Shown here: one piece after another, positions 1 to 47,399 of the stretch
How positions within the stretch are numbered: position 1 is the stretch's first letter
How the letters are laid out: each line of letters opens with the position of its first letter
Source of the DNA: an uncultured Halobacteria archaeon
GTDB taxonomy: Archaea > Halobacteriota > Syntropharchaeia > Alkanophagales > Methanospirareceae
Reading direction: 5' to 3'
NCBI GenBank assembly: GCA_964400255.1
Contig: CAYNTR010000003.1
Location: forward strand, 1 to 47,601
Length of the DNA: 47,601 bases
Program-made: the position numbers and the translations under genes
The notes under the pieces: generated by a model
Told to the model about the DNA's origin: nothing
Seen by the model: only the letters and a program-made list of their open reading frames with translations
Databases searched by the model: none

Positions 1-226
1 CGGCGTCAAACTTACTTCTTATATCTCATCCTCTTACGTCTCTTCTTCAGCTTGTGCTTCCGCATCTTTGCTATCTTTCGCTTCTTTCCGCAGGGAATTT
101 TGAATCACCACCTTTCTTTTCTTTATTTATACGCTCTTCTAAAATTATAGTACATAAATTACATTACATAATACCATATATATTTTCAGTGTTGGAGAAA
201 GAGAAAGACCTTGGGATGAAGATGAA

Positions 227-1414
227 ATGGGGAGGATAGAGCGGCCACCGAGTTGGATATTGAAATACAAAGAGAGGATCGAGCAAGATACGATTACCGT
301 GGAAGAGATTTTGGATGAGGAGAACAAGTTGCGAGCGTCACCCATTAAGATATCATCAGTAACGAGAGCGATCAATGCGATGGGATATCCTATTACGGGA
401 TTACGAAAAAAGAAGAACGGAGAAGAGGCTGAAGAATTAGAAGTCGAAGAAGCCAAGGAAATCACAGAAACGCAAGAAGAATCCGAACGGATAGATAAAG
501 GACCAGAATGGCTTCAGAAATATCGTGAACAGATAGAAAAAGGGACCATTACCGTAGAGGAGATTCTGGAGAAGGAGAACAAGACACGGGAGTCGCCTAT
601 AAAGCTCGCAACAGCCAAGCGCGCGATCAATGCGATGGGGTATCATATTACCGAATTACGGAGCGAGAAGAAAGGAGGAGCGGAAGGAGGCGAGAAGGAG
701 GGAGAAGCGGAGGAAGCCCCTGAAATGCGTGTTGAAGAGACCACCGTGAAAGGGAGTGGCCCTGGATGGCTCCAGAAGTACCGTGAACGGATTGAACAAG
801 GCACGATAACCATCGACGAAATTCTGGAAGAGGAGAACAAGATCCGAGAGTCGCCCATGAAGAGATCATCGGTGACCCGAGCGATAAATGCGATGGGGCA
901 TCCGATTAAAGGATTGCAAAGAGGGAAGAAAGGGGAAGCAGTGAAGGAGGAAGAAGCGGAGGAAGCCCCTGAAATGCGTGTTGAAGAGACCACCGTGAAA
1001 GGGAGTGGCCCTGGATGGCTCCAGAAGTACCGTGAACGGATTGAACAAGGCACGATAACCATCGACGAAATTCTGGAAGAGGAGAACAAGATCCGAGAGT
1101 CACCCATGAAGAGATCATCGGTGACACGAGCGGTAAATGCCCAGGGATATCCCATTACCGAGATGCAAAAAAGGAGAAGAGAAGCAGCAAAAGAGATAGA
1201 AAAAACCAAGAAAGCAGGTAAGGCGGAAGTAGTTGCCTATTCTTCCAGCATCGGCAAAATATCGGAAGCGACAGCTAAACGATTTAATCAGATGAAAAAG
1301 AGCTGGGAGAAAGACTTGGGCAAATCCCTGCAGAATGACTATTTCGCGAATATACTCCTTGCCTTAGCAACGCTCGCTGAACACGGGAAAGCACTTGTGC
1401 CCGTAAAGAAATAA
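227..1414 (+). CDS. Hypothetical protein made of four tandem ~45-aa helix-turn-helix-like modules joined by Glu/Lys-rich linkers
   Basis: 395-aa ORF. The module (P/G)xWLQKYRExIExGTIT(V/I)(E/D)EILxxENKxRxSPxKxxSxxRAINAMG(Y/H)xI occurs four times. The function is not recognised. Confidence 0.6.
   Translation: MGRIERPPSWILKYKERIEQDTITVEEILDEENKLRASPIKISSVTRAINAMGYPITGLRKKKNGEEAEELEVEEAKEITETQEESERIDKGPEWLQKYREQIEKGTITVEEILEKENKTRESPIKLATAKRAINAMGYHITELRSEKKGGAEGGEKEGEAEEAPEMRVEETTVKGSGPGWLQKYRERIEQGTITIDEILEEENKIRESPMKRSSVTRAINAMGHPIKGLQRGKKGEAVKEEEAEEAPEMRVEETTVKGSGPGWLQKYRERIEQGTITIDEILEEENKIRESPMKRSSVTRAVNAQGYPITEMQKRRREAAKEIEKTKKAGKAEVVAYSSSIGKISEATAKRFNQMKKSWEKDLGKSLQNDYFANILLALATLAEHGKALVPVKK
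704..1139 (+). repeat. Near-identical in-frame tandem duplication inside the repeat-protein gene (two ~187-nt copies, 249-nt period)
   Basis: By direct comparison, 704-890 and 953-1139 differ at only 3 positions. The offset is 249 nt, which equals 83 codons. Confidence 0.9.
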
Positions 1415-7540: not shown

Positions 7541-8710
7541 ATGAACGCGCAGAAAAAAGAGATATGGATAAAGGCTGATGCTGAGGTAGGAACCTGGGAG
7601 GCGCGGAAGGCGCGTATTACCGCTGGTTTGGAATCAGGGGTTGAAGGAGTGCTCGTAGAACCGGAAGACGTCGCAAAGGTGAAGGAGTTAGGTCGTATCA
7701 CTATAGCTGCGTTTTTACCAGCCGATACGTTAGAAGGAGCAGCTGACATTGTCGTATATGGTAAGCGAAGTGAAGGTGATGGCACCACGCCGATTCCGTC
7801 GGACCTCAGTGAATCACAAGTGCTGGGTGCATTGAAACAGACGATTGGTACGAAGCCCAATGCAGGCTATGTCGAGATACGCGGCAAGGCTTACGAGCGT
7901 TTTGCCGTGAGTATCGCGGATTACGCGAATTATGTGATTGTGATTGGAAAAGAGTGGAAGATCATTCCGCTGGAGAATATCATTGCGGAGTTGCAGCAGA
8001 AGGAAGTGAAGGTCATTGCGGGTGTGCAGAGCGCTGAAGAGGCACGAACAGCACTGGAAACACTGGAATATGGCGCTGATGGCGTTCTTATTGATACGGA
8101 CGATCCTTCAGAGACAAAGAAGGCAGTAGAGATACGGGATGCAAGCACCATGGGCACTATCCCGTTATCCACCGCACGGGTAACAAAGGTCAAGGAACTC
8201 GAAATGGGCGATCGGGTATGCGTGGATACGTGCTCGTTGATGGTGCGTGGCGAGGGCATGCTCGTGGGTTCGCAGTCGTTTGCGTTATTCCTCGTGCACT
8301 CGGAATCGGAGGAGAGCCCGTATGTTGCCGCGAGACCGTTTCGCGTTAATGCGGGCCCGGTGTATGCGTACGTGCTCGTAGGCGAGAAGACGAAATATCT
8401 GTCTGAGTTAGCATCCGGTGATGAGGTATTGATCGTCAATGCTGAGGGTAAGGCACGAAAAGCAGTGGTCGGTCGGTCGAAGATCGAGAAACGACCGCTT
8501 ATGCTCGTCGAGGCTGAGGTTGACGTTGGTGACGACAAGATGAGGAAATGCAGTATCATTCTCCAGAACGCGGAAACGATCAAGTTAATGGGTAAGGATA
8601 AGCCGATTTCTGTAGTCGATTTGAAAGAAGGTGACGAGGTGCTCGTTCATGTCACGGAAGCGGCGCGGCATTTCGGCATGGCTGTCGAGGAGATGGTGAT
8701 CGAGAAGTAA
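7541..8710 (+). CDS. aroB': 3-dehydroquinate synthase II (archaeal AroB')
   Basis: The 389-aa ORF begins KEIWIKAD and has the length and architecture of archaeal DHQ synthase type II. It is adjacent to the AroA' candidate. Confidence 0.8.
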   Translation: MNAQKKEIWIKADAEVGTWEARKARITAGLESGVEGVLVEPEDVAKVKELGRITIAAFLPADTLEGAADIVVYGKRSEGDGTTPIPSDLSESQVLGALKQTIGTKPNAGYVEIRGKAYERFAVSIADYANYVIVIGKEWKIIPLENIIAELQQKEVKVIAGVQSAEEARTALETLEYGADGVLIDTDDPSETKKAVEIRDASTMGTIPLSTARVTKVKELEMGDRVCVDTCSLMVRGEGMLVGSQSFALFLVHSESEESPYVAARPFRVNAGPVYAYVLVGEKTKYLSELASGDEVLIVNAEGKARKAVVGRSKIEKRPLMLVEAEVDVGDDKMRKCSIILQNAETIKLMGKDKPISVVDLKEGDEVLVHVTEAARHFGMAVEEMVIEK

Positions 8711-8714
8711 GGGG

Positions 8715-8755
8715 CACACTTTCTTTCTATAAGAAAGAACCTGTGCTAAGAAAGA
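8715..8755 (+). repeat. Copy A of a dispersed 41-nt gene-3'-end element (contains the hairpin TTCTTTCT-ATA-AGAAAGAA)
   Basis: cacactttctttctataagaaagaacctgtGctaagaaaga starts 4 nt after the aroB' stop. It matches 28904-28944 at 40 of 41 positions. Confidence 0.85.
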
Positions 8756-8801
8756 TTGGAAAACTTCCGGTATAGCTTGTGTAGAAGGGGAAATTTGGAG
8801 T

Positions 8802-8981
8802 TTACCCGATGAATCGTAACTTCTTCTCGATTCTACATCTCGCATTCTCTCTGAGGATGATCCGTTGCGCTTTGTGCCTACCTGTCTTGACGATGACAAG
8901 AGGTTTCGAGATCGTTCTCGCTTCTCCGACCAATATGTCACCCACAATGGTAGCTCCTTCCTCCGTGTAGATTGTTGTCAT
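8802..8981 (-). CDS. Small hypothetical protein (59 aa), downstream partner of a coupled two-gene unit
   Basis: The ATG at 8981 overlaps the upstream gene's TGA as ATGA. The product MTTIYTEEGATIVGDILVGE... matches no family I recognise. Confidence 0.4.
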   Translation of the reverse strand: MTTIYTEEGATIVGDILVGEARTISKPLVIVKTGRHKAQRIILRENARCRIEKKLRFIG

Positions 8982-9268
8982 TCGATCACCTCGAGCCTTT
9001 TTTCTGCCTTTAACTCTTCGGTAATCTCCCAAACAAGGTCGTAGTCCAATGCTAAATCTTCAGCAACTTCGTGTGGATATGCCCCTTTGTATGACCGATA
9101 ATACCCTAACACTTCTTGCTTCGCTTCGTCATACGTGATATCACGCACCTTCACAACCTTTACGGCACGCAGCTTATCCCTTATCGCCTCTCGAACAAAA
9201 TCTGAAATGCTGATGTACATACCAGCTTCTATCAGTCCTTGGATTTGTATGAAATATAAATCAAACAC
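8978..9268 (-). CDS. Small putative DNA-binding protein with an RHH (CopG)-like N-terminus and a possible winged-helix C-terminal half
   Basis: LIEAGMYISISDFVREAIRDKL resembles RHH helix A, loop and helix B. The GTG start leaves almost no beta-strand, so the RHH may be truncated. A stop codon lies 6 codons upstream. Confidence 0.45.
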   Translation of the reverse strand: MFDLYFIQIQGLIEAGMYISISDFVREAIRDKLRAVKVVKVRDITYDEAKQEVLGYYRSYKGAYPHEVAEDLALDYDLVWEITEELKAEKRLEVIE

Positions 9269-9283
9269 TTTTAAAAAGTGTTT
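9263..9283. promoter_or_regulatory. Perfect 10-1-10 palindrome overlapping the start codon of the RHH-like gene (candidate operator)
   Basis: AAACACTTTT-a-AAAAGTGTTT was read directly from the sequence. It lies in the divergent intergenic region between the small-gene pair and the HEPN-like gene. Confidence 0.5.
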
Positions 9284-9501
9284 TCAGGGGGAATTCTTTT
9301 TTTCTCTTTTTTTCTTTTAGCACAAGTTTTCTTTTTTCAAAAAGAAAAAGTGTGGCAGAAACCGCAGTGCAGGCTACCGCGTTGCTGGTTTAATAAGATG
9401 AAGTTGAAGGAGACGGATAAAATTAGAGAGAAAGCGAAAGAATTATATGAGCATAAGAGCTACAAGGTAATGGGAGGATAAAAAAAATATTTATAAGAGA
9501 A

Positions 9502-10968
9502 ATGGGAGTCTCAACTATAGAAAGAGGTATCTTTAAATATTATATTCCTCTAGATCTTCATCTAAAGGCCAATTTCTATGCTTTGCATTCGCACATTTTT
9601 ACCATAGACGAAATTCCTGAATTTTTCGGAGAAGAACAACTAAAAATGAATTTTGAGCATTCAAATAATCAACCACTGTATGGGCATCTTTTAATAGAAA
9701 CTGAATCTCAATTAGATAAGATTGATTCAGTTTTAGAAACAGCTCGATATAGTCGTCCTCGTGTTTTAATCATTCTGAGCGTGTTAAGCTTTTTAAGTGG
9801 GCGTGCTTTCACAATCTATGAAATAAAGGGTAGTCGTTCGCACAAATTAAATAAAAGTCAAACAGGAATCCCAAATAAAGTTGAAGTATCTGACTTCATT
9901 ATCGAAGGAAAGGATAAGTCTAAAGATCTATTAAGACTTTTATTGATTCTTAGTTCGAATGACGAGGATACTAGACGCTTGGCTGCCTCTTTATTAGATA
10001 GATGGCGTAAAGCTCTGTATCTTAAAGAACAAAGCGATGCACAATTATATTCTGATGAATCACTTCTCGCATACTTTCACATATTGGAACTTCTTTCAAA
10101 CTATTATCAGGAACAACTCATTGTAGAAAGTGAAAATAAATTAAATAATTTTCTTATTAATCTATTTAGTGACTCTTTTAAACTAAGGGGTAATCACCTA
10201 GAGCAAGAAAAGAATCAAAAGTTCAGGCAGCTTCGTAGCCTTCTTCTAGCTGATGGTCAACTTTCGGTATTTTCCAAAATTTGTTATTCACTTGATCAGC
10301 TTGGTATGCTTGATACAAAAACACAAACGCTGGTTTCCACGCTCGTAAAAGCAAGAAATGAAGTTACTCACGTCCGACAAGTTTATCAAGATAAGTTCAT
10401 ATGGCCATTACCGCCCTTTTTCCCTCTTGATAAAGATTCTGATGAACATGTCTGGGAGATAGAGTTGCTCTCGGCACGAGCTATTGCGTCACATATGGGA
10501 TTAGATGCCTGGAAAGAAGAATGGGAAGATTTGCACAGACAACTTCACCCACCTATTGAAATTATTCAATCATTTATAGAAAAAGAATGCTTTCAAAAAA
10601 TCTCCTCAAAGCAGTTTATCAAGGGCAATTATGAAGGAGTTCGGCCATCCTCGATCATTGATCTATATTTATCAAAAAAGTTGACATTGCATCAAACAGA
10701 GGTTACCTTAAGGTCTCTTCTTATTGACACACAAGTTAATAAAAATAATGCGCATGAATTGTTTATTGCAGCACTTTTATTTGCGGATAGTCCAGACGAA
10801 AAATTATCCGAAAAATGTAAATTAATTGTTATAAAAATTCACGAACATGAGTGGATATATTATTCAAATATAAAGGATATTTTAAGATATCTTGAATATC
10901 GGGGTTTTTCGCCGAAATGGTTACGAAGTTGGATAGAATCTAAGGATCATGTAAAGATAAGAAAATAG
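9502..10968 (+). CDS. Orphan 488-aa protein with a central HEPN-like domain (RNEVTH = Rx4H)
   Basis: LVKARNEVTHV (R285, H290; nt 10354-10371) sits in an all-helical stretch, preceded by DESLLAYFHILELLSNYY and followed by WEIELLSARAIASHMG. The gene is strongly AT-rich compared with its neighbours. Confidence 0.55.
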   Translation: MGVSTIERGIFKYYIPLDLHLKANFYALHSHIFTIDEIPEFFGEEQLKMNFEHSNNQPLYGHLLIETESQLDKIDSVLETARYSRPRVLIILSVLSFLSGRAFTIYEIKGSRSHKLNKSQTGIPNKVEVSDFIIEGKDKSKDLLRLLLILSSNDEDTRRLAASLLDRWRKALYLKEQSDAQLYSDESLLAYFHILELLSNYYQEQLIVESENKLNNFLINLFSDSFKLRGNHLEQEKNQKFRQLRSLLLADGQLSVFSKICYSLDQLGMLDTKTQTLVSTLVKARNEVTHVRQVYQDKFIWPLPPFFPLDKDSDEHVWEIELLSARAIASHMGLDAWKEEWEDLHRQLHPPIEIIQSFIEKECFQKISSKQFIKGNYEGVRPSSIIDLYLSKKLTLHQTEVTLRSLLIDTQVNKNNAHELFIAALLFADSPDEKLSEKCKLIVIKIHEHEWIYYSNIKDILRYLEYRGFSPKWLRSWIESKDHVKIRK

Positions 10969-11155
10969 TAACAAATTATGGTGGATTTAATTCTTATTAC
11001 TTAAAATATCGTTATTCTTGAAATTCATAGTAAGGAATGCCATAAATATTCGTGAATGACAAATTTAAAATTCCAGAGCAAAAATCCTATTTTTTAATCT
11101 CAATCGCAAACAAAATTCCGAAACTTTAAAATGTCTTAACAGCCTTCCATAAATT

Positions 11156-12985
11156 ATGGAACCCACGAGCATGCCACTCCGATGGGACATGGCGATACGA
11201 TGGCACGAATGCTGGGATGCCGCACCGGAGATATATGTGCTCCTAAAGGAGAGTGAAACATTGGAAAGTGCCCGTGAAAAGGTTATAAGCTACCTTAACG
11301 CGTTAGATTGGACCTACCGCCGTGATATTGACAAGATTAACTCGTGGGATTATATCTTACTGGAAGAAGCGCTTAGCTGTTTGAAAAATATTATTTCACC
11401 GCGTAATGAGCGTTTAGCCGAGACGTCAGCATTGGAACATCTCTGGACCGCTGCGGTATCCGGCGATGCAGACGTGGCCGACGATTTCATTGATGAGTTT
11501 GTGCACTTGTTTAAAGCGATAAAGGGGCAATCAGATGTCTACCCTTCACGGTTAATGGAAGGCGTGGAACTGCCCGATTTCGATAAGTATAAAGGCCGAG
11601 AAGCGTCGTTATTGCGCTCTGATTACCTTGATCAGATGGGGCAACGAGTGGCTGAGTATCTTGTGCGCTATCCAAGTGGTCTCGACCCTGAGATTGTTTA
11701 TAGACGGAAGGATCACAAGCTCCGGATATTAACGGAACTCGATGCTACGGAAGACGATTGGGACGACTGGCGGTGGCACTTCCGTAACGTGTTCAGGGAT
11801 AAAAAGGGTTTTGAGACAATTAAAAAGATTATCAGGTTAAAACCAATCCAGGAGACGGCAATCGAACTCGCGTTGGAGAATAACGTTCCGTTTGGTGTCA
11901 CCCCACACTACTTGCATCTCATGGATCCCGAGCCGACGGATTATGATTACGCCGTACGGAGGCAAGTGTTTCCGCCGTTGAGTTATGTTGAGAACATGAT
12001 AGCGCATAAAGAGGATAAAGAGTTTGCATTTGACTTTATGCGTGAGCATGATACCTCACCGATAGAGCTTGTTACCCGCCGCTATCCAACCGTTGCAATC
12101 GTCAAGCCGTACGATTCGTGTCCGCAAATCTGCGTGTACTGTCAACGGAACTGGGAAATCACCTCTCCGCTTATGGATTACGCCTTAGCGCCCAAAGAGC
12201 GCATTGATAACGCAATACAGTGGTTCGCGGAGCACGAGAGTATGATGGACGTCTTGATCACCGGTGGCGACTCACTGGCAATGACCGATACCTTAATTGA
12301 GTATATCGTGAAGCGATTGTCTGAAATCCCGCATTTGCACAGCATCCGAATCGCGACGCGCATACCCATTACGGTGCCGCAGCGGGTTACAGAGGAGCTC
12401 TGCGAGATCTTTGCAAGTTATTATGAGGTGGGCAAGCAAACGCTCTGCATGGTCACGCATTTCGAGCATCCGTATGAAGTTACTCCCGAGACTGCCAGAG
12501 CGATCAGGTGCATTAAGATGCACGGCATGCACGTGTATAACCAGCAGGTGTTTACCTTTGCGAACAGTAGACGATTCGAAACCGCGGCATTACGAATTGC
12601 GATTAAGCAGATTGGGGTCGATCCGTATTACACCTTTAACATGAAGGGCAAATCAGAGATTGAAGATTACGCAGTACCCCTAGCGCGCATTTTGCAAGAG
12701 CGGAAAGAGGAAGCGCGCTTGCTGCCCGGGATTTTCCGCACTGACGAACCCGTCTTTAATGTGCCCTTCCTCGGTAAAAATCATCTCCGAGCCTGGCAGG
12801 ACCATGACCTTATCGCCATTCAGCCTGATGGAAGAAGAATGTATGCATTTCATCCGTGGGAAAAGAACATCGCGAGAGTAAAACCGTATCTGTACACGGA
12901 TGTGACGATCCGGAGCTACCTGGAGAAATTAAAGGACCGGGGCGAAGACCCTGACGATTACCGGAGCATCTGGTATTATTACTAA
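11156..12985 (+). CDS. KamA-family (lysine 2,3-aminomutase-like) radical SAM protein with a ~190-aa N-terminal extension
   Basis: It has the CPQICVYCQR CxxxCxxC cluster motif. The Trp-rich KamA N-terminal motif (DDWDDWRWHFRN...TPHYLHLM) begins only around aa 195. The total length is 609 aa. Confidence 0.8.
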   Translation: MEPTSMPLRWDMAIRWHECWDAAPEIYVLLKESETLESAREKVISYLNALDWTYRRDIDKINSWDYILLEEALSCLKNIISPRNERLAETSALEHLWTAAVSGDADVADDFIDEFVHLFKAIKGQSDVYPSRLMEGVELPDFDKYKGREASLLRSDYLDQMGQRVAEYLVRYPSGLDPEIVYRRKDHKLRILTELDATEDDWDDWRWHFRNVFRDKKGFETIKKIIRLKPIQETAIELALENNVPFGVTPHYLHLMDPEPTDYDYAVRRQVFPPLSYVENMIAHKEDKEFAFDFMREHDTSPIELVTRRYPTVAIVKPYDSCPQICVYCQRNWEITSPLMDYALAPKERIDNAIQWFAEHESMMDVLITGGDSLAMTDTLIEYIVKRLSEIPHLHSIRIATRIPITVPQRVTEELCEIFASYYEVGKQTLCMVTHFEHPYEVTPETARAIRCIKMHGMHVYNQQVFTFANSRRFETAALRIAIKQIGVDPYYTFNMKGKSEIEDYAVPLARILQERKEEARLLPGIFRTDEPVFNVPFLGKNHLRAWQDHDLIAIQPDGRRMYAFHPWEKNIARVKPYLYTDVTIRSYLEKLKDRGEDPDDYRSIWYYY

Positions 12986-13044: not shown

Positions 13045-14034
13045 ATGACCGTTGCACCTATTACAAGCATGGAACTTAAAGAGCTGAGAGCTGAGGATTT
13101 GCATCCCGAGCAATTTATAGAGGAGAAAGTAGCGGAGATCAAGTCAATTGTCGGCACTGGCACGGCGATCAATGCGTTATCAGGTGGTGTCGACTCGTCG
13201 ACGGTCACACTGCTGGGGCACAGAGCGTTAGGTGCCCGCTTAAAGACCTATTTCATTGATAACGGCATAATGAGGCAGGATGAGCCGCAACGAATTGTCT
13301 CAATCTTTAAGAAGTTGGGCATACCCGTGGCGATAGTTGATGCTCAAAAGGAGTTCTTCGATGCTCTCAACGGTCTTACCGATCCCGAAGAGAAACGAGA
13401 GGCGATTACGCAAACCTTTTACAAGCAGGTCTTCGGCAAGCTGGTAAAAGAGAGCGGAGCAAACTATCTCCTCCAGGGCACCAATTACACCGACGTCGAG
13501 GAGACGGTTGCAGGGGTTAAACGACAGCATAACATCCTCGAACAGTTGGGAATCGATACGCAGGCTGCATTTGGTTATACCGTTATAGAACCGTTAATTC
13601 AACTCAGAAAGCCCGCAATACGCGCGGTTGGACAGGCGCTCGGGTTACCCGAAGAGCTCTACAGCAGACCACCCTTCCCGGGCCCTGCATTAGCCGCACG
13701 AGTATTAGGAGAAGTCACGCCAGAACGCGTAGAACTGGTACGAAAAGCAACAAAAATTGTCGAAGGCGAATTACAGAGCACCGGAGCATTCCAGTATTTA
13801 GCCCTCTTGCACGAGGACAAAGTCACGGGGATGAGAGCAGGGAAGCGGGACTACGGCATGCAAATCGAAGTACGGTGCTGGGAGAGCAGCGATGCGAAAA
13901 CAGGATCACCAACAAGACTTCCATACGAGACCTTAGAGCGATTGGCTGAACGAATAACGACTGAAGTGCCTGGCGTTGTCAGCGTAACCTATAACATAAC
14001 CAAAAAGCCACCATCAACGATCGAAGCAGTCTAA
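13045..14034 (+). CDS. GMP synthase subunit B-like ATP pyrophosphatase (divergent GuaA C-terminal-type protein)
   Basis: It has the SGGVDSS PP-loop, TDPEEKR and PFPGPALAARVLGEVT motifs. Regions that are normally very conserved (HHNVGGLP, the C-terminal IEWE) are altered to QHNILEQLG and IEAV. The start could be 13045 or the ATG at 13069. Confidence 0.7.
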   Translation: MTVAPITSMELKELRAEDLHPEQFIEEKVAEIKSIVGTGTAINALSGGVDSSTVTLLGHRALGARLKTYFIDNGIMRQDEPQRIVSIFKKLGIPVAIVDAQKEFFDALNGLTDPEEKREAITQTFYKQVFGKLVKESGANYLLQGTNYTDVEETVAGVKRQHNILEQLGIDTQAAFGYTVIEPLIQLRKPAIRAVGQALGLPEELYSRPPFPGPALAARVLGEVTPERVELVRKATKIVEGELQSTGAFQYLALLHEDKVTGMRAGKRDYGMQIEVRCWESSDAKTGSPTRLPYETLERLAERITTEVPGVVSVTYNITKKPPSTIEAV

Positions 14035-14097
14035 GTTCAAAGCCATATATGCGGTATCAAAAATACTAAACGGGCAGGCAGGTAATTTTTCAATAGC

Positions 14098-14119
14098 ACT
14101 TTTTTCTAAAAAGTTTTTT
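14098..14119 (+). terminator. Hairpin plus T-run between the convergent guaA-like and rps8 genes
   Basis: ACTTTTT-TCT-AAAAAGT is followed by TTTTT, read directly. Archaeal termination is known to use oligo-T tracts. Confidence 0.4.
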
Positions 14120-14510
14120 AATAGACAAAAGCCAGTAATTGACCGCCTATACCACTCTCAGCCGCTTTTGCATGCGACATTACACCTTTTGAAGTCGTCA
14201 CGATAAGCATCCCAAAATCCTGCGCAGGGAGTAATCTCTTCTCCCATTCCTCATATCCCTTTACACGGACGTAAAACCGCGGTTTTATCGCATTGCAATC
14301 GTTTATTTTACCGCAGAGCTTCACCTTGAAGAACCCTGCTTTTCCGTCTTCAACAAATTCAAATTCATCGATATACCCACCTTCTTTCATCACACTCAGA
14401 ACGTTCCCGATCAACTTTGAAGCTGGTTTTATCGTACAGTCCATCTTCCCCACTCTTTCGGTATTCTTCATATGCGACAGAGCATCTGCCAGCGGATCAT
14501 TGAGTGACAT
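14118..14510 (-). CDS. rps8: 30S ribosomal protein S8 (uS8)
   Basis: [18 protein letters not shown]... ending ...[11 protein letters not shown] is a typical archaeal S8. The length is 130 aa. Confidence 0.9.
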
Positions 14511-14597
14511 TTTTTCTTCCTAGTCTTTATTCCATCTTGGTGTTTAAAAAGATATGAATGAGCCTAACTTCTCTTTTTAGTCTCGTTATTCGAAGCG

Positions 14598-14753
14598 TTA
14601 GTTATACTTCCTGAATCCTATCTCTCTTGCTATCTCCCTGAAGCACTGCCTGCAGAGATAAATCCCGTACCGACGAACTAAACCTCGCCTTCTGCTACAC
14701 CGCCTGCACATGTTCGCACCTCTCCCAAATCTCTTAACCCTCTCTTTTGCCAT
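14598..14753 (-). CDS. rps14: 30S ribosomal protein S14 (uS14), zinc-binding type
   Basis: This gene is not in the ORF track because it is shorter than 60 aa. Hand translation gives [51 protein letters not shown] (51 aa) with CxxC...CxxC. It lies directly upstream of rps8. Confidence 0.85.
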
Positions 14754-15164
14754 CTTACCTCACTTCACTCTACCCCTCTTCCTATTACAATAACAGTTCC
14801 GAATGCCAGAGAATACTTCATCTCCCCTCGTTCTTCTATTTTTCCGTGCATGTCTTCGCCCATTCTCAGGTTCGCCTCGCTATTTCCTCCGACTTGTTTA
14901 ATATCCTATACCACGGTCGAAATTAAATCCTTCTCTATTCTTGTTTACCCTGCTGATAAAAAAGATTTTTAGATAGCGCTGGATGTTCGTACGCGTGCTG
15001 TGCTCTAAACCAATGACGACCAACAAACTCACACGGTCTTAAATGAAGCGCTACAGGCTCACGAGTCGCATTACCTTTAACTCTACAAAAATAGTACCAA
15101 ATATCAGAGCAACCCGTTTTTAACGCTCATCACAGTTACCATGACCCTAGAAGGTAAATCGAAA

Positions 15165-15926
15165 ATGAAAATCGCAGTTGCTGGGAAAGGCGGTGTAGGG
15201 AAAACCACCATTGCCGGCACGCTTGCTCGACTCTTCGCACAGGATGGCCAGAGCGTCGTTGCCGTTGACGCGGATCCCGCAATGAACTTGAAATTTGCGT
15301 TGGGCATAGCCCAGAACCCCCCACCCATATCCGAACTCAAGGACCTGATTTTTGAACGCACTTGTGCTTACAACGGGACGGGCATCTACAAATTAAACCC
15401 CAAAGTGGACGATATACTTACGAACTACGGGGCAAAAGGACCAGATGGCGTAACACTACTGGTAATGGGCACGATTGAGAAAGGAGGGACTGGTTGCATC
15501 TGTCCAGAAACCGCATTTCTTCGCGCACTGTTGCGACACGTGTTATTCAAGGAAAGCACCGTTATCATGGATATGGAAGCGGGGATAGAGCATTTGGGAA
15601 GAGGTACCGCGCGAGGCGTTGATCTGATGCTCACTGTAGTAGAGCCGGGTATGAGATCTGTGGAGACCGTGGGCAGAATAAAGAAGCTCGGGGAGGATAT
15701 CGGAATCACTACCATACGAGCGGTGATGAATAAGGTTACGGATTTAGAGGTAGTCAAAACTATAGCGACAAAATTACAGGCGATGGATATACCGCTACTG
15801 GAGATTATTCCGTATGATCGAGCGTTGATCCAGGCGGATATCGAGGGTAAAGCTCCTTTGGACGTAGGAGGAGAAGCGGTAGAACGTATAAAAACCCTAA
15901 AAGAAAAAATCTTGTTACAGCCCTAA
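15165..15926 (+). CDS. cooC: CooC-type nickel-insertion/maturation ATPase (MinD/ParA superfamily)
   Basis: It has the P-loop MKIAVAGKGGVGKTT and the CooC CxC motif (GTGCICPE). The ORF track begins at 15141, but the ATG at 15165 gives the canonical N-terminus. Confidence 0.8.
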   Translation: MKIAVAGKGGVGKTTIAGTLARLFAQDGQSVVAVDADPAMNLKFALGIAQNPPPISELKDLIFERTCAYNGTGIYKLNPKVDDILTNYGAKGPDGVTLLVMGTIEKGGTGCICPETAFLRALLRHVLFKESTVIMDMEAGIEHLGRGTARGVDLMLTVVEPGMRSVETVGRIKKLGEDIGITTIRAVMNKVTDLEVVKTIATKLQAMDIPLLEIIPYDRALIQADIEGKAPLDVGGEAVERIKTLKEKILLQP

Positions 15927-16609
15927 GCCTCTTCATCAGATCCCTTCTGATTTGAGGGTTGCTGAGGTGTCGCCTTCTTTGAAACCGCAACTTTTGAGGT
16001 TCGTAATACTTTGGTGCCCAGCATATAGCCTTTTTCAAGTTCCTCGACAACCGTATCTTCCGGAAGATCATCATCAATAACGGTCATGGTAACTTCATGT
16101 TTATACGGATCGAACTTCTCGCAAGCTGCTTTGATCGGTTTTAACCCTTCCTGGCCAAGCGCCTCGAGTAAATCCAAATAAATTAACTCAAGTCCTTTAA
16201 GAAACGATTGATCATCAGACTTCTCAACAGACGTAAAAGCAGCCTCAAGAGCATCGATAATTGGTAATAAACGCTTTATTAACTGTTCGGTTGCGCACTT
16301 CTCGTACTGTTCTCGCTCACGAGCAGCCATCTTTTTATAGTTCTCGAAGTCCGCTTGGAGGTATTTGAGTCGCGATAAATACCCATCCGCTAACGCAGTC
16401 TTTTCTTCTAATTCCTTCTTCAAGCGCGCTAATTCCCTGCTTGATACCTCGAGCTCTGCCTCCTCGCGTTCTTTTGCTTCTTCTTCTTTTGGCTCCTCTT
16501 CCTCTTCCCGACCTTTTTTCGGCAAATTCACTCCCCAGATCTCTCTCGTTTTTTGTATGCGCCTGGTCGTTAAAAAAATTTTCGCATTCCTCGCCGGTTC
16601 TGCGTCCAT
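15923..16609 (-). CDS. grpE: Nucleotide exchange factor GrpE
   Basis: A Glu/Lys-rich N-terminus is followed by YLSRLKYLQADFENYKKMAARERE and a beta-rich C-terminal domain (G...VLRTSKV). No dnaK or dnaJ is adjacent in this window. Confidence 0.85.
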   Translation of the reverse strand: MDAEPARNAKIFLTTRRIQKTREIWGVNLPKKGREEEEEPKEEEAKEREEAELEVSSRELARLKKELEEKTALADGYLSRLKYLQADFENYKKMAAREREQYEKCATEQLIKRLLPIIDALEAAFTSVEKSDDQSFLKGLELIYLDLLEALGQEGLKPIKAACEKFDPYKHEVTMTVIDDDLPEDTVVEELEKGYMLGTKVLRTSKVAVSKKATPQQPSNQKGSDEEA

Positions 16610-16702
16610 CTTTCACCATCAACGTGGCAGTGCGAAAAATATCTCACGAATAGAACCTTCAGCAAAGATGACTTATATACGCCCGGAGTATTAAATAATG
16701 AG

Positions 16703-28991: not shown

Positions 28992-29378
28992 TTAGTGGAG
29001 TTGATCTACTAGTTGTTCGAGTTTGGTGAGCTCGCGTTTACGGAACCCGACAAACAGACCAGAGAATTTACCGCCGACACACGTTTTCGTTTTCTCGCCT
29101 TTTGGAAGCACGCTGTTAAGTAACGAACAGATAACTTTCACCATATCGCCCGTTCCCGTTCTAATCAATATCCCGTTCTCAATCCCGATGATCCAGAAGA
29201 AGGCGCGTGTTTTCGGTGGTATTAAATTAACCAGCGAGGGATGCTCGATATCGAGGTGCGTCACGGTCGCTCTTGCGAATCCTTTGAGATGAATACAAAC
29301 CTGTGCGTCGACTAACTCGACATCGTTCAGGTACACCTGCGCATCTAAGAGGAGTTTGCCTTCTGCTGATGCGGTCAT
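28992..29378 (-). CDS. Hypothetical 128-aa soluble protein, translationally coupled to the upstream membrane protein
   Basis: Its ATG overlaps the stop of the 29375-30823 gene as ATGA. I recognise no motif. Confidence 0.5.
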   Translation of the reverse strand: MTASAEGKLLLDAQVYLNDVELVDAQVCIHLKGFARATVTHLDIEHPSLVNLIPPKTRAFFWIIGIENGILIRTGTGDMVKVICSLLNSVLPKGEKTKTCVGGKFSGLFVGFRKRELTKLEQLVDQLH

Positions 29379-30823
29379 ATTTGTTGCTTGACTCGTCTTT
29401 TTTCCAGTTCTTGTTCGTAGAGTCCCATAAATTTTTGAAAGGAGTCACGATTTCTTCCTTCTAGTTTAGATCCATATTGCTGAAGCTCAGTTCTGACAAT
29501 TTCTTCGTTAAAACGTGTCAACTTTGCAAGACACCTTGCCAATGATTCTGCCAATTTTACGAATCCTCTATCTACAGCAATTATTCCCTCATTATAGAAA
29601 AACCGGGCTACTACCGTTATCCTCCCGCCAGCTCTGTCTCTTGCAATACCAATTCCAACCAATCCAAGATATCCTACTGCTTTGCTCGCTGTACGTTCAA
29701 CAGATTGGTCCATAGCATCTTTAGCAGCCAATGCAAGATGGCGAGCTACCTCTATTGCTGCACTTACAGCACCCTTCTCGTTAGCAGTTTTTCCAATTTC
29801 TCCAAGAGATTCTACGGCAGTTGTTGCTACATTTTCGGCTCTTTTTTCCAAAGCATTCGTCTCAATTAATTTAAGAGACCATGCTACAGTGTTAACTGCA
29901 TCCACGATTCGTTTTTCAGCCAGTGATTTTCCAAACTTTTCCAAATTCTTAATAACTTCTATGGCGGATTCTTCGTCACCTCTGCTTATAGCCAATCTAC
30001 CAACTCGTTCTAAATGTTTACAAAAGGATCTTGTAATTTTATTTTTGTCGTCAGTTTCAATAATTTCAATAATCCGCTCAGTTACTGCTTCTAATCCTAC
30101 TCGTGTCGTCGCAATGTCATATTTCATGATGGAGCCGTGCACGATGTCGATTATAGGCTGAATTGGATCTTTTGAGCTAAGAAATACCTTTTTGGTTATA
30201 TCCGCAGTCAATCGGTTAATAATATTTTCTGGCTTCAAAAGATCTAAGATATTCCCAATATATGGAACTAAAATAACAAACGTGAATGCCCCAAGCCAAT
30301 ACGCAATCGAAACGCCGTGCTCAAATGAAAGAATAGGGTAAAAAGAAGACCAAATTTTGGTTTGATTTACAAAATCGCTTTCTTTTCCCACCGCCATCTT
30401 CAATAGAAATAATCCGTAGAATATTGAAAACCCGTAAAAACCTATAAGTATCCACAAATCAGGATTTTTCTTTGGACTTTTGAAAATATCAATTACTCGT
30501 GGCGAATACGCCGACGCGGTAAGCTGAACAGCAATCAAGGTCAATGATACGACGATGGCAATGATTGCCGCTTGGCTCTGAACGAGCGCACTGAGTAAAT
30601 ATCTCGCGCTCGTGGCTTCTGTTTGGAAAAGATCAAAGTGATTGAATATGAGAGCAAAAACTACAGACCACAACACAAGAAAAAGCAGATATACCAAAAT
30701 ACGTTTAGCCCAGAGTTTTTCTTCGTAGATCAACCACCAATCACACGCTTTCTTTTCTAGATCACGCACTTTGTTCTTTAGAGATTTAAAAGACCAAGTA
30801 GAATCCTCTTTTGCATCTTGCAT
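29375..30823 (-). CDS. DUF2254-like membrane protein with a C-terminal alpha-helical repeat domain
   Basis: The N-terminal half has ~5 TM helices and includes LLSALVQSQAAIIAIVVSLTLIAVQLTASAYSPRVIDIF, which resembles the DUF2254 signature as I recall it. The C-terminal ~220 aa look like HEAT-like helical repeats. Confidence 0.55.
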   Translation of the reverse strand: MQDAKEDSTWSFKSLKNKVRDLEKKACDWWLIYEEKLWAKRILVYLLFLVLWSVVFALIFNHFDLFQTEATSARYLLSALVQSQAAIIAIVVSLTLIAVQLTASAYSPRVIDIFKSPKKNPDLWILIGFYGFSIFYGLFLLKMAVGKESDFVNQTKIWSSFYPILSFEHGVSIAYWLGAFTFVILVPYIGNILDLLKPENIINRLTADITKKVFLSSKDPIQPIIDIVHGSIMKYDIATTRVGLEAVTERIIEIIETDDKNKITRSFCKHLERVGRLAISRGDEESAIEVIKNLEKFGKSLAEKRIVDAVNTVAWSLKLIETNALEKRAENVATTAVESLGEIGKTANEKGAVSAAIEVARHLALAAKDAMDQSVERTASKAVGYLGLVGIGIARDRAGGRITVVARFFYNEGIIAVDRGFVKLAESLARCLAKLTRFNEEIVRTELQQYGSKLEGRNRDSFQKFMGLYEQELEKRRVKQQI

Positions 30824-38504: not shown

Positions 38505-39215
38505 TTAAAGTTTCTTACAATCTGAAATCGAAGTTTGCAGAGCTTCATTGTATTCTAAAATATCCTCGACCCGCTTACATATGCCATTACAATATTTTTT
38601 TACTGGATTATTAGGTTCTCCGCTGAAATCATGATCTTTATACTTTTCCTTATTTAACGCTATTTTGGTCTTTATTTCCTGACAAAGTAAATATTGCTCA
38701 TAATAATATTCAGATATTCCATTATACAGCGGATTATCTCCGCATTTACAACCTTCCAAATACTGAAGGCCTCCTTGGTTTCTAAATGCGTTAAACCCGT
38801 CTTCTCTAGGATAAATAAATATTGATTCTGGTTCATACCAGTTGGAAAATTTCTCTTCTTCAAATTTTTCTTTATTTTTTCCCAAAATCTCTTCATTCTC
38901 TTTTAACTCAGCCAGTAAAACATCCAAAAACTGGTTCTTTTTAGCCTTCTCTTTATTTATATCGTCTTCTCTTCTCTTTTCATCTCTAGCACTCTCGGCT
39001 TCTCTATTCCTTTTGCTCTCGTCAACCAAATCTTTAGTGCTTATAGCATATCCTATTGTCACAAAAACTAATGCTAAAACCAATATGGCTTGAATTACAG
39101 CAAGATATTTCACTGCTAAAGAATCGGGGAGAAATAAAGCAACGCATATAAAAATTACCATTATCAAAAACAAAAGTCCAGATTTTCTCCATTTTGCGCT
39201 CATTTCTACATCCAT
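38505..39215 (-). CDS. Orphan membrane protein: 2 N-terminal TM helices, a charged coiled-coil and a Cys/Tyr-rich C-terminal domain
   Basis: 236-aa ORF in AT-rich DNA (21 of 60 G+C in the hand-counted line at 38881). I recognise no family. Confidence 0.5.
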   Translation of the reverse strand: MDVEMSAKWRKSGLLFLIMVIFICVALFLPDSLAVKYLAVIQAILVLALVFVTIGYAISTKDLVDESKRNREAESARDEKRREDDINKEKAKKNQFLDVLLAELKENEEILGKNKEKFEEEKFSNWYEPESIFIYPREDGFNAFRNQGGLQYLEGCKCGDNPLYNGISEYYYEQYLLCQEIKTKIALNKEKYKDHDFSGEPNNPVKKYCNGICKRVEDILEYNEALQTSISDCKKL

Positions 39216-39322: not shown

Positions 39323-39396
39323 AGCCCCGGGAGGGATTTGAACCCTCGACCTATTGATTACAAGTCAATCGCTCAACCGGGCTAAGCTACCGAGGC
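39323..39396 (-). tRNA. tRNA-Thr (anticodon UGU)
   Basis: Folded by hand on the minus strand. The acceptor is GCCTCGG/CCGGGGC, the D-arm GCTT..GAGC, the anticodon stem ATTGA/TCAAT with loop CTTGTAA, and the T-arm GAGGG-TTCAAAT-CCCTC. Confidence 0.9.
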
Positions 39397-46883: not shown

Positions 46884-47399
46884 GTGCAGGAACTATGTGA
46901 GAAGATGAAAGAAGAAGATTTGCGAGCATTACTTTCCGAGCAGCGATCATTAGCGAACGAATACCATACCTCGATATGGCGGAGTGTCCATTTCTTTTCC
47001 GCTTTAATTACTGCCCTTTTAGGACTAAGTGTTATACTCATCGCCTCAGAAGCACCAAAAGTCCTTGTCGTCAGCTTCCCTTTCTTAGCGTTACTATTCA
47101 GCATATTTGGCATCTTGGTATTATATAGAGGGAGTCGTTATTTCTTACAAGCCACCTATGCTATTTCTGTAATTCGCAATAAACTTGATATTCAGGACCC
47201 TATGAAGAAGCATGAGTTAAAGGTATTTGGAATTGATGATTTATTATGCGATAGGTTTCCTTCGGCAGAGGACTATGTAAAGAAACGAAGTATTAATTTA
47301 AAACAATTTAGAATAAGGACGATTATCTACTGGATATATATTGTATTAGCCATGTTGAGCGCACTTTTTATCGGTTATGTTGTTGTTCCTTATACGTAA
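46884..47399 (+). CDS. Hypothetical 3-TM membrane protein in AT-rich DNA
   Basis: 171-aa ORF. An amphipathic N-terminus is followed by two adjacent TM helices, a ~70-aa soluble loop and a C-terminal TM. The start may be the ATG at 46905. Confidence 0.4.
   Translation: MQELCEKMKEEDLRALLSEQRSLANEYHTSIWRSVHFFSALITALLGLSVILIASEAPKVLVVSFPFLALLFSIFGILVLYRGSRYFLQATYAISVIRNKLDIQDPMKKHELKVFGIDDLLCDRFPSAEDYVKKRSINLKQFRIRTIIYWIYIVLAMLSALFIGYVVVPYT

Follow-up and report, generated by a model that had tools for sequence, protein, structure and literature searches.

What is an AT-rich gene of 488 codons doing between core biosynthetic genes of an archaeal methanotroph? The gene is an open reading frame (ORF) at positions 9502 to 10968 of a stretch of 47,601 nucleotides, which we call the window, from an uncultured archaeon resembling the anaerobic methanotrophic archaea of group 1 (ANME-1). 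A preliminary description of this DNA, made from its letters alone, had proposed the ORF as a candidate stand-alone HEPN defence gene. Our analysis supports that candidacy, through a motif conserved across a family of homologues, the matches of those homologues to HEPN-clan models, the lack of a partner gene, the defence genes that surround the homologues in bacteria, and a related archaeal contig on which a Gabija system occupies the same site. We consider it probable, at roughly 60%, that the gene encodes a stand-alone, three-domain HEPN ribonuclease that acts as a single-gene antiviral effector of the abortive-infection type. That the protein would dimerise, cleave RNA as a ribonuclease (RNase), sense infection through its flanking domains and protect against viruses is what one would expect by analogy with known HEPN enzymes.

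The central domain and its conserved motif

The ORF runs from an ATG to an in-frame stop and encodes 488 amino acids (aa), exactly as the preliminary description had it. We modelled its product with AlphaFold2, using the family alignment as input, and obtained a model with a predicted local distance difference test score (pLDDT) of 89.7 and a predicted template-modelling score (pTM) of 0.89, in which the protein falls into three parts.

9502 to 10968, plus strand: candidate stand-alone HEPN-family ORF, 488 aa, complete from ATG start to in-frame stop, with foreign composition, homologues and an AlphaFold2 model
9502 to 9906, plus strand: N-terminal alpha/beta domain, aa 1-135, with six strands and two helices in the model
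9919 to 10494, plus strand: central all-helical HEPN-like domain, aa 140-331 in the model, to which the Pfam HEPN-clan matches of family members map
10354 to 10371, plus strand: codons of R285-N-E-V-T-H290, the putative catalytic Rx4H motif, as judged from family conservation
10513 to 10965, plus strand: C-terminal helical domain, aa 338-488, from the helices of the model

The central domain, which gave a pLDDT of 87.3 when predicted separately, comprises helices at 140-150, 155-176, 184-201, 203-225, 230-249, 256-266, 272-290 and 313-331. The three helices named in the preliminary description map to aa 158-172, 185-202 and 318-333, and its placement of the motif within a helical core holds at the level of the predicted model. 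The sequence KARNEVTHV, at aa 283-291, contributes R285, N286 and H290; in the model the motif occupies the last long helix but one (272-290), and a conserved WPLPPFF loop then leads into the last long helix (313-331). In ApeA and HepT the motif lies on HEPN helix H3, the same position as here (bioRxiv 10.64898/2026.01.26.701840), and the central domain may well have a HEPN fold. The N-terminal domain had no match in Pfam, the PDB or BFVD, and the C-terminal domain had no family or fold match, consistent with the earlier remark that neither flanking region could be assigned to a family. The N-terminal alpha/beta domain presumably has a sensing or regulatory role.

By itself, the motif counts as weak evidence, since R[NDQH]xxxH arises in 15% of shuffles of the window protein; its significance comes from its conservation across homologues. 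When 125 full-length members were aligned with MAFFT, the top three positions for conservation across the family were H290 (125/125), R285 (124/125) and N286 (124/125). Thus, the RNxxxH motif that the preliminary description had picked out at R285 to H290 is real, and the invariance of its R and H, which had been proposed as a check, holds in all but a single case for R285 and without exception for H290. The next most conserved positions are A289, E186, E196, R85, F306, G291, P302, R167 and K170 (family residues, in window numbering). Conserved residues of the central domain are R167, K170, E186, H193 and E196, those of the C-terminal domain are W341, D429, S430 and D459, and R85, in the N-terminal domain, is kept in 121 of the 125 members.

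When 55 members were submitted individually to hmmscan, their commonest Pfam matches were HEPN_RiboL-PSP (22 members), HEPN_MAE_28990 (14), HEPN_Apea (4) and HEPN_Swt1 (3). These HEPN-clan matches cover a stretch that ends at the motif, with some scores just under the gathering cutoffs (26-27 bits against 28.4, and 25 against 26.8). The clearest case is P0136, a divergent but unambiguous member (E = 3.6e-26 to the window protein), which matched HEPN_Apea (PF18739) with 29.1 bits, above the cutoff of 24.4, over residues 164-266, a span that includes its R258 and H263. Taken together, motif conservation and profile similarity make membership of the HEPN superfamily well supported on sequence grounds.

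A chromosomal slot with exchangeable cargo

Within the window, the ORF lies between genes for two core biosynthetic enzymes, a 3-dehydroquinate synthase II (DHQS-II) and a radical-SAM enzyme. The DHQS-II is 81-85% identical to proteins from metagenome-assembled genomes labelled Methanophagales, Methanospirareceae and "Methanosarcinales archaeon", from which we conclude that the host is ANME-1-like; the preliminary description had likewise taken it for an archaeal methanotroph. We recovered sister contigs by scanning metagenomes with the downstream KamA-like radical-SAM protein. One of these (L027, metagenome contig Ga0307378_10004574) is syntenic by tblastn, with 89% identity for the radical-SAM gene, 84% for the gene next to it and 91% for a pair of small genes on the far side of the slot, encoding a ribbon-helix-helix (RHH)-like protein and a 59-aa protein. 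Between the same flanks this contig is without the HEPN gene and carries instead a lower-GC GajA-GajB cassette of 3.6 kb, that is, a Gabija system (PADLOC E-values of 1.1e-80 for GajA and 3.7e-87 for GajB). The cassette is complete, at positions 2329-5875 of L027, with a GajA of 580 aa and a GajB of 598 aa, and has a G+C content (GC) of ~0.40 compared with 0.50 in its flanks. This shows that Gabija occurs in the ANME-1-like lineage and that the slot is a hotspot at which cargo is swapped. No other single line of evidence argues as strongly for the gene being defence cargo as the way Gabija and the HEPN gene alternate between fixed flanks.

Alignment of the flanks allowed the slot to be divided as follows.

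About 9449 to 11104, no strand: variable cargo segment of ~1.66 kb, GC 0.33, delimited by flank alignments A5 and A6 against L027
9355 to 9448, plus strand: conserved left-flank block belonging to the backbone, which holds the start of a small ORF (9398-9481); ~80% identical to L027 upstream of Gabija
8802 to 9268, minus strand: divergent backbone pair, the RHH-like protein (8978-9268) and the 59-aa protein (8802-8981), with an ATGA start/stop overlap; 91% protein identity in L027
11105 to 11155, plus strand: conserved right flank just upstream of the radical-SAM start at 11156, conserved in L027 and in a second sister contig, L028

With borders at ~9449 and ~11104, the cargo is therefore the HEPN gene alone. 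In particular, the toxin-antitoxin (TA)-like pair of divergent small genes that the preliminary description had noted beside the ORF does exist, on the minus strand, but is not tied to the HEPN gene. The alternation of cargo within fixed flanks assigns the pair to the backbone, as do its host-like GC (0.43-0.47) and its conservation beside Gabija in L027, and on these last two grounds we rejected it as a cognate TA system or regulator of the HEPN gene. The RHH-like protein gave sub-threshold matches to RHH_8 (4.8e-4) and to ParD, and the 59-aa protein belongs to no family; the two may constitute a TA or regulator pair of the backbone, marking one edge of the hotspot. Downstream of the 59-aa gene, L027 has a (TACC)n microsatellite of ~7 units (~1555-1585), missing at the homologous position in the window (alignment A5).

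The small ORF at 9398-9481 (plus strand) encodes 27 aa in the window, MKLKETDKIREKAKELYEHKSYKVMGG, and 22 aa in L027, and the two peptides share MxLKETxKxREKAKELY. Its first 17 codons are conserved, at ~80% nucleotide identity, upstream of L027's different cargo, and the border of the variable segment falls within its 3' end. Neither the conserved block 9355-9448 nor the whole of 8500-11400 gave a match to Rfam. The small ORF or its block might function as a leader peptide, as an element of a promoter or as an anchor for recombination. On the other side of the slot, the sequence upstream of the right flank differs between the window, L027 and L028. At positions 64-390 (plus strand) of L028, upstream of the conserved radical-SAM promoter region, there is a third occupant, an open frame of 109 aa or more, situated where the contig ends, that is related neither to the HEPN gene nor to Gabija. 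Inspection of the surroundings of the slot for signatures of integration (direct or inverted repeats, a nearby tRNA) yielded nothing convincing, and no integrase marks it.

The composition of the ORF sets it apart from its surroundings. Its GC is 0.341 and its GC at third codon positions (GC3) 0.264, compared with 0.485 +/- 0.045 and 0.516 +/- 0.078 for the 35 other window genes of at least 150 aa (z ~ -3.2 for GC and GC3 alike), and only one gene in the window has a larger codon-usage distance. The left-hand spacer has a GC of 0.33 and the right-hand one of 0.26, so the AT-rich non-coding DNA reported on both sides is indeed there, and on recounting, the hand counts of G+C given for individual lines of sequence (19/60 at 9601, 14/60 at 10141 and, in the neighbouring gene, 33/60 at 11401) proved exact. 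The horizontal acquisition suggested on this basis gains support from the deviations in GC, GC3 and codon usage and from the nesting of the protein among bacterial sequences, to which we now turn.

A scattered bacterial family and the competing readings

The preliminary description had called the ORF an orphan gene, which it is not. A word-indexed search returned 55 homologues, with 28-47% identity and mostly 450-510 aa long, and an exhaustive phmmer scan of 1.84 billion representatives returned 155 clusters (at 50% identity) with E <= 0.001, 79 of them with E <= 1e-30. A look-up of the exact sequence of the window protein found no record, and a profile search of a 5.8-billion-protein database, to which a word-index limit applied, added no new relatives. 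The family was not found by tblastn among 72,556 plasmids and 50,697 phage genomes (INPHARED), nor in IMG/VR when scanned with the family alignment and with a prophage-borne member, and a literature search found no paper describing it. Named members are all bacterial (Bacillus, Paenibacillus, Neobacillus, Staphylococcus, Morganella, Corallococcus and Phormidesmis). Similarly, a pattern scan of 185,579 GTDB species genomes gave 19 loci, all bacterial and with no other archaeal member among them, spread over Cyanobacteria, Myxococcota, Firmicutes, Gammaproteobacteria, Campylobacterota and Bacteroidota. Mobile accessory genes typically show so rare, patchy and phylogenetically scattered a distribution.

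In a tree built by neighbour joining, the window protein clusters with a pair of metagenomic proteins of unnamed host, at 46% identity, and this group nests within a clade of cyanobacterial and myxobacterial named members, inside the wider bacterial diversity. Foreign composition and nesting in the bacterial tree together point to a transfer of the gene from bacteria into the ANME-1 archaeon. The composition also bears on another way of viewing the gene, as a housekeeping RNA-processing enzyme of the archaeon, which its position between DHQS-II and the radical-SAM enzyme might recommend. We find that hardly credible, because the composition is foreign, the family is as patchy and rare as 155 clusters among 1.84 billion representatives imply, and the closest relative is only 47% identical; the absence of the gene from the same slot in sister ANME-1 contigs effectively refutes it.

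We examined the bacterial setting of the family through 122 genes flanking 22 independent loci. No neighbour family occurs in more than 3 of the 22, and hence there is no recurrent partner gene and no sign of an obligate one. Defence or mobile genes do, however, adjoin many members. One locus has a TIR-NB-ARC-TPR protein, an nSTAND NTPase and a PD-(D/E)XK protein; another has a UvrD helicase and a SIR2-TPR protein; in Bacillus thuringiensis the neighbours are a STAND NTPase, HsdR_N, a KAP NTPase and MutH; and at a further locus they are a serine recombinase, AIPR and a complete type I restriction-modification (R-M) system. GajB-like helicases, integrases and HNH nucleases are each found near family members at three loci. 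In Staphylococcus kloosii, OLD-like AAA_15/21 and AAA_13 ATPases accompany the gene beside CRISPR-Cas9. Two strains of this species share the same island around the HEPN homologue (loci L039 and L040, about 13486-16647): in one, a complete Cas9 of 1053 aa precedes Cas1; in the other, sugar-metabolism genes come after a remnant of only 629 aa that contains HNH. This difference suggests that the CRISPR locus was lost beside the HEPN gene in one strain. Finally, in the clade of P0044 (L042:8001-9416, and L043) the gene is a moron that lies just upstream of the tape-measure gene within the tail module of a prophage. P0044 thus sits in a structural module, with small tail genes on one side and the tape-measure gene on the other, suggesting that temperate phages carry the family gene.

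The prophage and the recombinases, together with the small conserved ORF just upstream in the window, would also suit a mobile-element addiction module or selfish toxin, an RNase that would be TA-like or stabilise its element, would not be antiviral and would be inhibited by its own flanking domains or by an unrecognised small antitoxin. Many HEPN families are indeed TA toxins (PMC3710099). However, no adjacent small gene or minimal nucleotidyltransferase (MNT) is conserved across the 22 loci, the upstream small ORF is backbone that also stands beside Gabija in L027, and the family is absent from the 72,556 plasmids and 50,697 phage genomes. Moreover, many of the neighbours are bona fide defence systems rather than mobility genes. 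We therefore regard an addiction module as rather improbable.

Several of our results weigh against a working HEPN defence nuclease in the window, beginning with those on its identity. The window protein itself matched no HEPN model in Pfam (E <= 1), NCBIfam or PADLOC, and its direct comparison with PDB sequences gave no family assignment, so that the profile searches proposed in the preliminary description succeeded for other members, with P0136 above the cutoff, but not for the window protein. Even among members, all Pfam matches except that one fall below the gathering score. Foldseek found nothing at E <= 0.001, whether with the full model against the PDB and BFVD or with the central domain against the PDB, its best alignments being to unrelated helical proteins at TM-scores of ~0.1-0.25. 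With no solved relative to point to, the HEPN fold is unconfirmed: the structure prediction that had been recommended gave a confident all-helical central domain, but Foldseek gave no HEPN relative for it. Profile searches against PDB sequences, with the whole family and with a divergent subgroup, produced chance matches only (uS10, E = 0.69; the winged helix-turn-helix of AdeR, E = 0.12). As for the neighbourhoods, which the preliminary description had also suggested checking, defence genes recur there in a purely qualitative tally, and in Morganella and Phormidesmis the family gene is a singleton with only housekeeping neighbours.

The missing fold match and the mostly sub-threshold Pfam similarity would fit a central domain that is a non-nuclease, HEPN-like helical scaffold binding a ligand or nucleic acid, with the conserved R-N-x3-H devoted to that binding and the whole protein acting as a sensor or regulator. 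Non-catalytic HEPN domains do exist. However, whereas such domains typically lose the Rx4-6H motif, nothing in the present family is as highly conserved, and there is no effector domain or partner gene for a sensor to control. We judge this reading very unlikely.

The remaining adverse results concern the window copy rather than the family. Residues T289 and V291 are each unique to it among the 125 members, which have A at the first position in 123 cases and G at the second in 120. These two residues directly flank the catalytic H290, and so the window copy may be altered or attenuated. Additionally, no archaeal promoter could be assigned to the ORF at a workable distance, a TATA-like TTTATAA lying only 5 nt upstream of the ATG. 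Scans for sigma-70 promoters and for terminators gave chance-level results, and such models do not apply to archaea. These features invite the view that the family is a defence HEPN nuclease of which the window holds an inert or decaying copy, recently imported from bacteria, weakly expressed or impaired in catalysis, and without a role in ANME-1. The GC3 of 0.26, so far from host usage that the gene must be un-ameliorated, and the lack of any other archaeal member among the 19 GTDB species loci would agree with it. On the other hand, the ORF is intact over 488 codons, R285, N286, H290 and all other invariant residues are kept, and the protein deviates at only 2 of 26 highly conserved columns (289 and 291), which is the family median, and matches the other 24. 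We consider an inert copy unlikely.

If the gene is a functional defence nuclease, as we favour, its operation can be sketched by analogy with other HEPN enzymes. Two protomers would pair via their central helical HEPN domains, with R285, N286 and H290 of each forming a composite, metal-independent RNase site. That site would be held inactive until the N-terminal domain, the C-terminal domain or both sense a cue of infection, whereupon the enzyme would cut host or viral RNA and growth of the infected cell would stop. The commonest target of HEPN enzymes of this kind is the anticodon loop of tRNA. The family would move horizontally among bacteria as single-gene cargo of defence islands and of at least one prophage, and one copy would have crossed into an ANME-1 archaeon, entering a slot that exchanges defence cargo.

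Little has been charted of archaeal immunity outside CRISPR and R-M (PMC12988326). It is possible, at a little under even odds, that the gene is the first recognised and first archaeal member of an undescribed single-gene HEPN immune system, that its flanking domains represent a new kind of infection sensor and that ANME-1 archaea have bacterial-style chromosomal defence hotspots, swapping unrelated systems within fixed flanks. If so, the slot would offer a practical starting point from which to mine uncultured methane-oxidising archaea for new immunity genes. The members in Bacillus thuringiensis, Morganella morganii and Staphylococcus kloosii are tractable for direct study. As stand-alone HEPN defence candidates are already known in kind, what the finding adds is its context: a slot with fixed flanks that holds the HEPN gene in one contig and, in another, Gabija gives concrete evidence for the dynamics of defence hotspots, and for transfer from bacteria to archaea, in an uncultured, environmentally important lineage. 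Should the gene be inactive or non-defensive, the finding would shrink to an ordinary horizontally acquired accessory gene.

The window contains other genes of low GC. The highest codon-usage deviation belongs to a gene for 236 aa at 38505-39215 (minus strand; GC 0.33, GC3 0.28; no Pfam match), which lies ~100 nt from a tRNA-Thr(tgt) gene (39323-39396) and is probably a second horizontally acquired insert. A predicted membrane protein of 482 aa with a DUF2254 domain is encoded at 29375-30823 (minus strand; GC 0.39, GC3 0.33), and a protein of 171 aa with a sub-threshold match to the 8xMP membrane proteins at 46884-47399 (plus strand; GC 0.38).

Comparison with known HEPN systems

How does the family relate to HEPN systems already described? 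AbiD/AbiF membership was rejected, as the Abi_2 model (PF07751) is matched by neither the window protein nor any of 55 members. HepT is a minimal HEPN RNase with the same Rx4H motif, and it requires the antitoxin MntA. The window protein, by comparison, is about three times larger, has two extra domains and has no adjacent MNT gene; no such gene lies beside the window ORF or recurs among the neighbours of the 22 loci, and we rejected membership of the HepT-MntA (type VII TA) systems for want of an adjacent minimal nucleotidyltransferase. HepT is the closest structural relative of the HEPN domain of ApeA (bioRxiv 10.64898/2026.01.26.701840).

The MAE_18760/MAE_28990 and RiboL-PSP HEPN families were defined by Anantharaman et al. 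2013, and some MAE_18760 proteins have an N-terminal domain of ~121 aa that is mostly beta (PMC3710099). This domain resembles the window N-terminal domain in size and type. MAE_28990 and RiboL-PSP supply the commonest Pfam matches of the family (14/55 and 22/55 members, all sub-threshold). However, the partners described for these families, ParB with a methylase or ParA/Soj, are not seen beside the window family. Dazbog and PD-T4-2 are two-gene systems of a DUF262 protein and a HEPN protein in which the partner is needed, and the PF18735-type HEPN is listed for PD-T4-2, PD-T4-5, PD-T7-3 and ApeA (PMC10952713). DzbB of Dazbog was the best PADLOC match among members (3/55, best E = 4.4e-06), most members having no DzbB match. 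No DUF262 partner occurs in the swapped window segment 9449-11104, in the adjacent genes scanned or among the recurrent neighbours of the 22 loci, and membership of Dazbog (DzbAB) or PD-T4-2 was rejected on that account.

ApeA, reportedly described by Gao and colleagues in 2020, is a single-gene HEPN anti-phage system. The window family resembles it in being a single gene with no partner, in having an Apea- or RiboL-PSP-like HEPN domain with a conserved Rx4H, in its location in defence islands and in its extra non-catalytic domains, which could hold a regulatory pocket; moreover, its member P0136 scores above the Pfam HEPN_Apea threshold. ApeA begins with a helical domain, continues with a Mid domain and ends in a split HEPN domain, residues 335-583 in Ec2ApeA (bioRxiv 10.64898/2026.01.26.701840), whereas the window family has an alpha/beta N-terminal domain of ~135 aa, a central HEPN domain and a helical C-terminal domain of 150 aa. 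The stand-alone ApeA model of PADLOC matched 0 of 55 members and its Cas13-ApeA model weakly matched 3 of 55 (E = 0.003), and PDB sequence profiles do not link ApeA with the window family. We rejected ApeA membership because the architecture differs and the stand-alone model is not matched.

DARNA is a single-protein HEPN tRNase of 456 aa, activated by single-stranded DNA (ssDNA) bound by the single-strand DNA-binding protein SSB; it opens with the HEPN domain (aa 1-159), after which comes a Pds5-like domain, and it carries out abortive tRNA cleavage (bioRxiv 10.64898/2026.02.22.705581). It is similar to the window protein in size and in joining a HEPN domain to a large helical non-catalytic domain, which in DARNA senses the trigger. 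In the window family, however, the HEPN domain is central and preceded by an alpha/beta domain, and we detected no sequence similarity; the difference in domain order led us to reject DARNA membership.

Hence the statement in the preliminary description that the architecture matches no family it could name holds against ApeA, DARNA, Dazbog and HepT-MntA. As the family has the architecture or partner of none of these systems, we conclude from its sequences that it is a distinct, unnamed three-domain HEPN lineage, nearest in sequence to the Apea/RiboL-PSP/MAE_28990 group. Single-protein HEPN systems have already revealed new modes of sensing infection, by deoxydinucleotides in ApeA and by SSB-bound ssDNA in DARNA. 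The window family follows the same logic but with two different, unclassified accessory domains, and therefore another sensing mechanism may exist within it.

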